The position numbers and the translations under genes are program-made. The notes below the pieces were generated by a model that was given only the letters and a program-made list of their open reading frames with translations, ran no database searches and was not told the DNA's origin. 64,000 nt of DNA, from contig DAOVVV010000009.1 of assembly GCA_030637025.1 (NCBI GenBank), positions 268 through 64,267 on the forward strand, written 5' to 3'. How positions within the stretch are numbered: position 1 is the stretch's first letter; each line of letters opens with the position of its first letter. Shown in pieces: positions 33,473 to 47,057 of this stretch. This stretch comes from Clostridia bacterium. GTDB taxonomy: Bacteria; CBDUZB01; JAGLHV01.

Positions 33473-33630
33473 AAAGGTGAAATATGTTTTGAACGACTTA
33501 GCAAATTTTAGCAAAAATAAGCGTTAAAAAAATGAGCTTGTCTGAGCAAAGCGAGTTGCTCATTTTTAGCTTGTTTTTGCGTGCCCGAAGGGTAAAATTA
33601 TGCGTCCAGAGAAAAACATGTTTTGCCTTG
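33473..33630 (+). mobile_element. 158-bp long-hairpin element, solitary copy
   Basis: Near-identical to 46578-46735; 18-bp imperfect terminal inverted repeats; internal stems. Confidence 0.85.
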
Positions 33631-33811
33631 ATTTCCCTTATTCTAGACACTAACTCATAAATACTATGTCACAAATAGTCATATACTCACTTCGTTCGCG
33701 TCATATATTGTCATAAACTATGAGCTATTTGGTCTATGGACTATAAATTATTCTTTGTCTTTTGTTTTGAATTTAGTTTTTTGTATTTAGTATTTGTCTT
33801 TTATCTGTTGC

Positions 33812-33843
33812 CTATGGACTATCGACTGTGGACTATGGACTGT
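33812..33843 (+). repeat. Heptamer array CT(A/G)T(G/C)GA
   Basis: ctatgga ctatcga ctgtgga ctatgga; also at 50985 and 53773. Confidence 0.9.
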
Positions 33844-33863
33844 CTGTTGTCTTCCAACTGTCT

Positions 33864-46529: not shown

Positions 46530-46563
46530 AAATCCAAAATCCAAAATTCAAAATACTAAATTT
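46530..46563 (+). repeat. Heptamer array AAAT(C/T/A)C(A/T)
   Basis: aaatcca aaatcca aaattca aaatact. Confidence 0.75.
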
Positions 46564-46577
46564 AAAACAAAAAAAAT

Positions 46578-47057
46578 AAAGGTAAAATATGTTTTGAACG
46601 ACTTAGCAAATTTTAGCAAAAATTAGCGTTAAAAAAATAAGCTTGTCTGAGCAAAGCGAGTTGCTTATTTTTAGCTTGTTTTTGCGTGCCCGAAGGGTAA
46701 AATTACGCGTCCAGAGAAAAACATATTTTGCCTTTGTTCTCCCCCCTTAATTCTTTAGAATAAAGGTAAAATGTGTTTTGAACGACTTAGCAAATTTTAG
46801 CAAAAATTAGCGTTAAAAAAATAAACTTGTCTGAGCAAAGCGAGTTGCTTATTTTTAGCTTGTTTTTGCGTGCCCGAAGGATAAAATTATGCGTCCAGAG
46901 AAAAACATATTTTGCCTTTGTTCTCCCCCCTTAATTCTTTAGAATAAAGGTAAAATGTGTTTTGAACGACTTAGCAAATTTTAGCAAAAATTAGCGTTAA
47001 AAAAATAAGCTTGTCTGAGCAAAGCGAGTTGCTTATTTTTAGCTTGTTTTTGCCTTT
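46578..47057 (+). repeat. Tandem array of the 158-bp hairpin element (184-bp period): 46578-46735, 46762-46919 and internally deleted 46946-47057
   Basis: Direct comparison; identical 26-bp linkers; the third copy lacks 46 bp between ttttgc microhomologies. Confidence 0.95.

Follow-up and report, generated by a model that had tools for sequence, protein, structure and literature searches.

A 158-nt intergenic element at positions 33473 to 33630 of a 64,000-nt stretch of DNA from a Clostridia bacterium (contig DAOVVV010000009.1; the whole stretch is called the window below) is a long imperfect hairpin that has been kept foldable on one strand only, the + strand. As judged from sequence scans and predicted folds, it locally represents a far broader class of strand-specific hairpins, spread across phyla, that share a near-invariant tip. 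We tentatively favor, with somewhat less than even confidence, a reading in which the element is a nonautonomous repeat that acts as single-stranded DNA through its + strand, bears a tip like that of plasmid single-strand origins (sso), and persists in copies that lie on the leading-strand template. The window copy is located between two − strand genes whose translations look like those of dTDP-sugar pathway genes.

Fold of the element and selection on one strand

In RNA folding, the + strand adopts a 17-bp terminal stem, a 10 × 10 internal loop, a second stem, and a three-way junction, from which extend a long inner hairpin with GC-AAA-GC at its tip and the short hairpin CCC-GAA-GGG. The structural details listed in a first-pass annotation of the window, which was made by a model from the letters alone, are all present in the sequence, and the computed terminal stem is 17 bp long. 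That annotation had suggested folding both strands, and the + strand proves clearly the more stable, with a minimum free energy of −51.4 kcal/mol (z −5.57, none of 200 shuffles as good) vs −35.6 kcal/mol (z −3.43) for the − strand. With DNA parameters, the corresponding values are −29.7 kcal/mol (z −4.88) and −24.7 kcal/mol.

Copies for comparison came from the genome that holds the window (G000, a 2.36-Mb, 77-contig assembly of 33.5% G+C) and from three sister species of the same genus (G001–G003). The resulting alignment, A1, comprises 51 of 54 extracted copies, 37 from G000 and 14 from the sister species. It omits three 180-nt variants, and copies that were cut by contig ends or had diverged ends were dropped, so that 37 of the 49 full G000 copies were kept. 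Its rows are related copies, and the counts that follow are not counts of independent events. RNAalifold predicts 53 pairs for A1, 13 of which show compensatory double changes. Pair 62/90 is GC in 26 rows, AU in 21, and GU in 3, and it is the very G-C/A-T double change that the first-pass annotation had picked out between two copies of the window; pair 65/87 is CG in 32 rows and AU in 18, and pair 18/143, in the terminal stem, is UA in 29, CG in 12, and UG in 10. In and just before the 5′ strand of the internal loop, columns T15–T17, A20–C22, A24, T27, and A28 are invariant.

The pairs that depart from Watson–Crick geometry are strongly one-sided. Among 2703 pair cells, 2401 are Watson–Crick, 249 are G·T, and 16 are A·C; G·T occurs in at least three rows at 16 pairs and A·C at a single pair. 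Each G·T pair on the + strand means an A·C mismatch on the complementary strand, and the strand bias in wobbles that had been noticed among the window copies is large in the 51 aligned copies. Moreover, the element sits on the locally C-rich strand, where mutation pressure should strip G and make A·C mismatches, and the reverse is observed: the + strand of the element has a G fraction of 0.208 and a C fraction of 0.134, against a local GC skew of about −0.25 on the host strand. The 249:16 ratio of G·T to A·C, the compensatory changes, and a composition richer in G than in C despite C-rich surroundings together strongly support selection that acts on the + strand as a single strand, with only this strand kept foldable. 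The central proposal of the first-pass annotation, selection on a single-stranded + strand structure, is therefore borne out, and both covariation and strand bias are evident in the larger alignment of 51 copies.

Table 1. Positions of the element, its parts, and the array copies in the window.
Feature	Position	Strand	Basis
Element, 158-nt imperfect palindrome AAAGG...CCTT[G/T] (AAAGG...CCTTG in this copy)	33473–33630	+	Folds, 107 genome matches, alignment, covariation, G·T excess
5′ arm of 17-bp terminal stem, G·T pairs included; partner is 33613–33629	33474–33490	+	Fold; pairs 2–18 with 143–159
3′ arm of terminal stem	33613–33629	+	Fold and consensus structure
Large internal loop, 5′ strand, unpaired, with conserved GAACGAYWTA; TTGAAC with the preceding TT	33491–33500	+	Alignment and consensus
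Inner long hairpin with the universal tip; module common to other phyla; model positions about 39–109	33511–33581	+	Covariance-model matches
Universal apex motif TGTCTGAGCAAAGCGAGTT: GC-AAA-GC minihairpin, possible tandem G·A pairs, AAGCGAGTT	33539–33557	+	40 of 51 genome matches identical
Second (side) minihairpin CCC-GAA-GGG, loop always R-N-A	33584–33592	+	Loop counts over copies
Conserved 3′-arm word TTATGC-GTCCA-GAGAAAAAC, RS_B-like (TTATGCCGAGAAAATTT) with five extra bases	33598–33617	+	Conserved columns 126–145; may be chance
Array copy 1	46578–46735	+	blastn, array reading
Array copy 2, with two pair-breaking changes	46762–46919	+	blastn, alignment
Array copy 3, with internal deletion; side hairpin and most of 3′ arm gone	46946–47057	+	blastn, array reading
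26-nt array spacer GTTCTCCCCCCTTAATTCTTTAGAAT	46736–46761, again 46920–46945	+	Array reading

Copies, arrays, and amplification within the genus

A blastn search of the assembly returned 107 matches, 49 of at least 140 bp and 58 partial. Many of them sit at contig ends, and repeats of this element break assemblies of the lineage. The 49 full copies lie in chromosomal spacers between housekeeping genes, and no match overlaps a long open reading frame (ORF) except for one open-ended ORF at a contig edge, beside the copy at C22:1750. Among 41 genomes searched by BLAST, the family is present in all four species of the genus and in none of the other 37, which are kin only at the level of the same domain. 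Every genome from outside the genus that was offered as a relative was of this distant kind, and the lineage appears very isolated in that collection.

The three further copies in the window form a head-to-tail array with a period of 184 nt, made up of the 158-nt element and a 26-nt spacer whose ends lengthen the inverted repeat and add a G·T pair on the + strand. The two pair-breaking changes against which the first-pass annotation had cautioned in the second array copy are real in the alignment. The third copy has lost about 45 nt between two TTTTGC words, which is a slippage-type deletion as expected of hairpin repeats.

The family is modular. Its outer chassis also occurs as 77- to 100-nt forms that lack the central hairpin and as 200- to 240-nt forms that carry other inserts, and the variants of the central stem are species-specific (GAGC/GCTC or AAGC/GCTT in G000, GGAA/TTYY in G001–G003). 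The orthologous spacer of G001 is without the element. Contig depth over the element, summed over all organisms in four DNA runs from one study, is about 100 to 190 times that over flanking genes, which suggests that the assembly undercounts the copies. The species-specific central stems, the element-free spacer, and this summed depth show that the element has been amplified recently and separately in each species.

No clean orthologous empty site was found among the sister species: the G001 spacer is rebuilt and holds other repeats, and the G002 and G003 contigs end at repeats. Likewise, we found no paralogous empty site, the right-flank word always being joined to the element, and the DNA contigs of the four runs contain no joint that skips it. 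The orthologous spacer of G001 (contig C10, L201 1990–2560; see also L199) contains a short reverse-strand ORF that resembles a DUF559-type endonuclease gene. Hairpins that read CCCCCTTT-GAAAAA-GGGGG lie on either side of this ORF, and another contig carries a duplicate of it.

A near-invariant hairpin tip across phyla

The apical 19 to 22 bases of the hairpin are near-invariant in G000, and the tip shared across phyla reads TGTYTGAGC-RNA-GCGAGTT (K comes next in the longer form). A scan for TGTYTGAGCAAAGCGAGTTKYY with one genome per species found more than 101 stretches, where by our own estimate about one would be expected by chance; the 80 loci listed from it hold 84 instances, and five of these loci belong to the window's own genus. 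With phyla read from the sequence records, the tip stands at hairpin apices in at least nine phyla. Hosts among the matches listed are Marinobacter, Reinekea, Polaribacter, Bacteroides, Anaerophaga, Lachnospiraceae, Megamonas, Fusobacterium, and Leptotrichiaceae, together with Saccharibacteria, Gracilibacteria, Desulfuromonadales, Nitrospirota, Nitrospinota, and Mucispirillum. Nearly all of the listed instances place the tip on a long hairpin, and the stems are taxon-specific and match the G+C content of the host. The loop varies solely as GC-RNA-GC (AAA, GAA, GTA, GCA, or ATA), and the closing pair changes from C-G to T-A in six of nine matches of one Fusobacterium record. Six of 197 diverse genomes from outside the genus hold the tip at one mismatch or fewer, four of them in 2 to 12 copies; a backwards control pattern also matched four genomes, and the single-hit genomes G147 and G169 are therefore weak cases.

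The covariance model of the genus identified 29 elements from outside it at E values up to 0.001, mostly over the full model length, with two Lachnospiraceae loci at 61.6 and 58.8 bits. In the alignment of these 29, which is fitted to the model, 91.6% of cells are paired vs 38.5 to 48.2% with slid partners, 49 of 53 pairs show double changes, and none of 500 shuffles reaches the observed values. An ungapped check gave 67 to 83% pairing at nine positions beside the tip, with lower values in shifted registers. Strand preference is shared as well: of 94 distinct instances from outside the genus, 78 have a motif strand that folds better than the complement, 10 (mostly Marinobacter) have one that folds worse, and 6 are tied.

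Orientation outside the genus is mixed. Among 57 instances with both flanks called, 20 oppose both ORFs, 17 are in their sense, 12 lie between convergent ORFs, and 8 lie between divergent ones; in Fusobacterium-like genomes, four copies are sense to genes, five are antisense, and five are between convergent genes. No consistent neighbor gene emerged when ORFs within 2.5 to 3 kb were clustered, as the 80 genome loci have no shared family and 80 viral loci gave solely prophage-specific ORF clusters, the 19-mer there often not being at a hairpin tip. Similarity searches of phages and of E. coli gave nothing useful, the apex being absent from the E. coli genomes searched, and those of plasmids returned short tip matches only. 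In a literature search, with most subscription journals and supplements outside its scope, neither the genus family nor the cross-phylum class was found described. The FopS small RNAs of Bacteroides were considered and proved to be an unrelated family.

Two prophage groups (those of L209 and L255) have the 19-mer outside hairpins, which may be chance or another use. One group has it in a lambdoid region, with a cII-like gene on one side and a replication gene on the other; the other group has it after ...GCGCCAG, at what may be an element end. In many Proteobacteria and Bacteroidota, the main hairpin is followed on its 3′ side by taxon-specific T-rich direct repeats and then by a hairpin with a pyrimidine arm and a purine arm. 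Many taxa have two direct copies of a T-rich 9- to 11-mer 3′ of the tip hairpin, the second of which pairs with an A-rich inverted copy (L105, L111, L126, L189–L193, L323). One such set reads CTTTCTTTG...CTTTCTTTGG-loop-CAAAGAAAG; these sets are taxon-specific, like a set of protein-binding sites.

Orientation relative to genes and replication

The genome that holds the window is extremely asymmetric: the locally G-rich strand carries 91.7% of ORF bases, and GC skew is about ±0.25 over 10-kb spans; contig C67, with mostly + genes and negative skew, is an exception. Within it, 103 of the 107 matches oppose both flanking ORFs, or the only one (48 of the 49 full copies and 55 of the 58 partial matches). 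The other four have one flanking ORF on each strand, and not a single match shares the sense of both its flanks; the antisense orientation that the first-pass annotation described for the window holds across the genome. When scored by skew instead, 106 of the 107 are on the strand that is locally C-rich. With 91.7% of ORF bases on the G-rich strand, the gene-sense rule and the replication rule are inseparable, and in G000 "antisense to genes" is indistinguishable from "on the leading-strand template." The four matches with mixed flanks follow the skew rule 3 to 1 and are too few to part transcription from replication. The leading strand is usually G-rich and gene-rich, and from GC skew and gene bias we infer that the foldable strand is the leading-strand template.

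A close parallel to this arrangement is that of integron attC sites. Both are imperfect palindromes, and attC sites are active in the form of a single folded strand. In sedentary chromosomal integrons, attC bottom strands were reported to occupy the leading-strand template in 25 of 30 cases, a placement of the active strand that limits folding, excision, and loss and allows large, stable arrays (PMC5371416). Unlike attC sites, the element is not accompanied by cassette ORFs and does not form an array next to an integrase (no IntI search was made), and its conservation lies in the tip rather than in R and L boxes at the base.

Similarity to plasmid single-strand origins

The ssoA (palA) origin has been described as a single-stranded structure of about 160 nt that RNA polymerase primes and that functions in only one orientation (PMC5703833), and the sso motifs RS_B and CS-6 are given as TTATGCCGAGAAAATTT and TAGCGT (TAGCGT/A), respectively (PMC4598088). 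At 158 nt, the element falls in the range of about 130 to 160 nt of the imperfect palindromes of ssoA and folds as single-stranded DNA under DNA parameters. It shares with the ssoA of the pT181, pE194, and pC194 families an imperfect hairpin of about 160 nt and a limit to one strand, for which the evidence in the element is structural.

The likeness extends to the apex, which reads TGTGTTAGCTAACTTGTTAGCGAGTTGG (TGTGTTAGC...TAGCGAGTTGG) in pT181 palA, TGTGTTAGCCAAAGCTTTGGCGAGTTGG in pLr2-1, GAGCGTAAGCGAAAGTAGTAGCGAC (GAGCGTAAGCGAAAG...TAGCGAC) in pE194, and CATAGCGTGAGC in pC194. The apical frame common to these origins and the element consists of TGTNT-NAGC, a small hairpin, and then GCGAGTTG (pT181, pLr2-1) or GAGCGTAAGCGA (pE194). 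The tip of the element contains N-AGCGA-GTT, and GCGAGTT(G) is common to the window, pT181, and pLr2-1. Written as a regular expression, the shared frame matches only the sso apex in pT181 and pLr2-1, and it has 46 matches in the window's genome vs one in the reversed sequence. The Fusobacterium-like copies read TAGCGAGTTGGT, with 12 bases identical to pT181, and contain the CS-6 form TAGCGA as such, and the window element carries an RS_B-like word. From these comparisons, the AAGCGAGTT part of the tip appears to resemble CS-6 and its flank, the likeness being partial.

The setting is different. The element is chromosomal and intergenic and is present in tens to hundreds of copies, whereas an sso occurs once per replicon beside a Rep gene. 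Classification as ssoA also calls for a rolling-circle or conjugative replicon with a Rep protein or relaxase and a double-strand origin, and the chromosomal copies do not reside in one.

Single-stranded DNA or RNA

Both minihairpins of the element are R-N-A triloops closed by C-G. The loop of the side hairpin is GAA in 16 copies, GCA in 13, ATA in 10, AAA in 5, ACA in 3, GTA in 2, and AGA in 1; it is thus R-N-A in all 50 copies with letters, the first base being G in 31 and A in 19 and the third always A. Triloops of the GNA or R-N-A type are a signature of unusually stable DNA minihairpins and are unusual for stable RNA hairpins. In addition, the repeat unit starts at the base of the hairpin; its flanks fall into several unrelated families and have no upstream promoter in common. 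These two features, the ssoA-like tip, and the random orientation to genes in other taxa lead us to lean toward single-stranded DNA over RNA. The first-pass annotation had left a structured noncoding RNA and a single-strand-mobilized element as its two options; the single-strand structure stands, and DNA is favored over RNA without a clear separation between them.

A structured RNA is the alternative that we take most seriously, although we consider it unlikely. Here + strand transcripts antisense to genes would constitute a multicopy small RNA or antisense regulator, and the tip, with its possible K-turn-type tandem G·A pairs, would be a binding site for protein or RNA. The G·U-tolerant covariation on the + strand and the far more stable RNA fold of that strand (−51.4 vs −35.6 kcal/mol) are both in keeping with this idea, as are the T-run after the hairpin on the + strand, the GC-rich hairpin and T-rich tract that follow the main hairpin on the motif strand of proteobacterial members, and the covariation of the closing pair of the tip from C-G to U-A. 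A TTGACA-N-TAAAAT-like word stands just upstream of about 5 of the 49 full copies, and a 9-of-12 promoter match is present at 46561–46588. A search for RNA runs that contain the locus returned none. However, the conserved unit contains no promoter, and a scan around the window copy found 0 sites vs 2.7 expected; transcripts from the promoter-like word would start inside the terminal stem, yet that stem covaries. The R-N-A triloops again argue against RNA. Rfam gave no match in the window at gathering score, chance-level matches only at E values up to 10, and no match on the hairpins at 18 loci from other phyla, so the family is absent from Rfam; no known insertion sequence (IS) end was recognized either, and neither of these two identities, which the first-pass annotation had named as grounds for dismissing its proposal, was recovered. 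Finally, 50 to 100 small-RNA genes all head-on to replication would be odd, and the random gene orientation in other taxa makes a cis role in mRNA unlikely.

Transposition-based alternatives

It is improbable, in our estimate, that the element is an ordinary double-strand miniature inverted-repeat transposable element (MITE) or a repeat like the repetitive extragenic palindromes (REP), with TA as its possible target, and that it acts, or is tolerated, as a terminator in the spacers between co-directional genes. The strand asymmetry and the orientation would then be by-products. Such an origin is compatible with the terminal inverted repeats, the small size (<300 bp), the intergenic position, and the many copies. 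Most copies have a T directly before AAAGG and an A directly after CCTTT, which is compatible with a TA duplication, and the Fusobacterium-like copies are similar; an A-T8-G-T4 terminator-like tail follows the hairpin on the gene strand, and the tandem and mosaic layouts resemble clusters of REP and bacterial interspersed mosaic elements (BIME). A terminator, however, should keep the mRNA strand paired, and the wobbles are A·C mismatches on precisely that strand, whereas the local composition bias, by which the + strand loses G, predicts A·C rather than G·T on the + strand. An orientation that is one-way in 106 of 107 matches is not expected when DDE transposases move elements with inverted repeats. 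Not every copy is flanked by TA, as the window copy has C...G/A and the array copies TA...TG, and a search for IS630-type DDE_3 genes found none. The 77-contig assembly, where DDE_3 was searched and other DDE families were not, yielded no autonomous IS whose ends match those of the element. Correia, ERIC, RUP, bcr1, and REP/BIME repeats are likewise intergenic, 100 to 170 bp long, hairpin-forming, multicopy, and mosaic or tandem, with possible TA targets, and bcr1 reportedly has a strand-specific fold with compensatory changes. To our knowledge, none of these families shares the cross-phylum tip or the complete one-way orientation.

It is very doubtful that the element is a relative of IS200/IS605, as are the palindrome-associated transposable elements (PATEs), or of REP elements with their REP-associated tyrosine transposases (RAYT), cut and joined by a genomic Y1 HUH transposase. 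Three Y1_Tnp genes are present in G000, two of them fused to a DnaA C-terminal domain, and sister G001 has 10 matches. A strand-specific hairpin in single-stranded DNA and an orientation linked to replication are hallmarks of such chemistry, shared with PATEs and REP/RAYT elements, and AAT usually closes the left flank. The active strand of IS608-type elements, however, resides in the lagging-strand template; the foldable strand here, as assigned from skew, lies on the other strand. Moreover, the element is one whole hairpin instead of two subterminal ones and is not linked to the Y1 genes, and no TnpB was found. The two fusion proteins, of 315 and 329 amino acids (C6:6450–7397 and C26:35962–36951 of G000; L174 and L175), join an IS200-type Y1 domain to the DnaA helix-turn-helix, and 71 of the 201 diverse genomes searched contain relatives whose open frames have a similar length, often in several copies.

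A model for the persistence of the hairpin

In the reading that we tentatively favor, the 158-bp unit would be nonautonomous, would have spread within the genus, and would have + strand single-stranded DNA as its active form. A conserved host machine would read the tip in this form, as RNA polymerase reads an sso, and such reading would let a single-stranded intermediate be recognized or turned into duplex. Where the foldable strand is the lagging-strand template, frequent extrusion would make the copy harmful or lead to its excision or deletion; with the foldable strand as leading-strand template, folding would be rare, the duplex would be kept, and copies would accumulate. The one-way orientation would then be a survivorship effect of replication, by the logic reported for attC sites when the integron is chromosomal and sedentary. 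We infer the steps that involve the host factor, the intermediate, and the disappearance of copies in the wrong orientation.

Several points weigh against this reading. The strand roles rest on GC skew and gene bias rather than on a mapped origin. Survivorship predicts a bias in other strand-biased genomes, and the Fusobacterium-like copies show none (six on the C-rich strand, four on the G-rich strand, and four unclear, by our own reading). No mobilizing enzyme was identified, as searches found neither DDE_3 nor OrfB_IS605 and none of the Y1 genes has the element at its flanks, and no empty site or target duplication was defined. The fusion of Y1_Tnp to DnaA_C was rejected as a partner of the tip, being present in none of the six apex-bearing genomes from outside the genus, though in 67 of the 197 non-genus genomes. 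With respect to the sso, the window element has AAGCGA, which matches five of the six bases of CS-6, and not TAGCGW; it has no RS_B at its 5′ base, only the split look-alike TTATGC-N5-GAGAAAAAC on the 3′ arm; and just 12 of the 93 other instances have GCCGAG upstream of the tip. The genus covariance model has no hit on pT181 (best 10.7 bits), and in a plasmid collection the exact apex occurs in chromosome-sized records, 128 of 136 of them from Ralstonia, and not in small rolling-circle plasmids. Lastly, tolerance of G·T fits RNA at least as well as DNA, and the promoter-like words described above also point to RNA.

We regard as highly improbable a further proposal, that the elements are dispersed chromosomal single-strand origins at which RNA polymerase primes the restart of leading-strand synthesis at the sso-like tip. 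By this account, the leading-strand template would become single-stranded after a replisome stall or a collision with RNA polymerase, the latter in an almost fully co-oriented genome, so that the hairpin would extrude and a primer would be laid by RNA polymerase at the tip. If so, the tip would mark signals in single-stranded DNA that RNA polymerase reads and that are common to the chromosomes of many phyla and to plasmid sso.

If instead the reading that we favor is correct, a selfish or domesticated family of hairpins would be read as single-stranded DNA from Fusobacteria to Proteobacteria, Bacteroidota, and candidate phyla, and the use of one 19-base tip throughout would point to a universal host partner. 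Plasmid single-strand origins, long held to be plasmid-specific and host-restricted, would gain chromosomal relatives. The one-way orientation would, in addition, offer a clean natural system for the question of how replication exposes hairpins and shapes the repeats that are retained, which has so far been answered mainly for integron attC sites.

Neighboring repeats

The spacer beside the window element (33631–33860) contains at least three other repeat families that are found in spacers throughout G000, each of which matches dozens of sites in the sister genomes. The first is a hairpin, ctcataaatactatgtcacaaatagtcat...ctatgag, at 33652–33722, the second consists of T-rich ttctttgtcttttgttttgaattt words, and the third comprises GGACTAT direct repeats at about 33800–33845. 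Summed contig depth is very high in the bin that holds the GGACTAT repeats (33793–33839).

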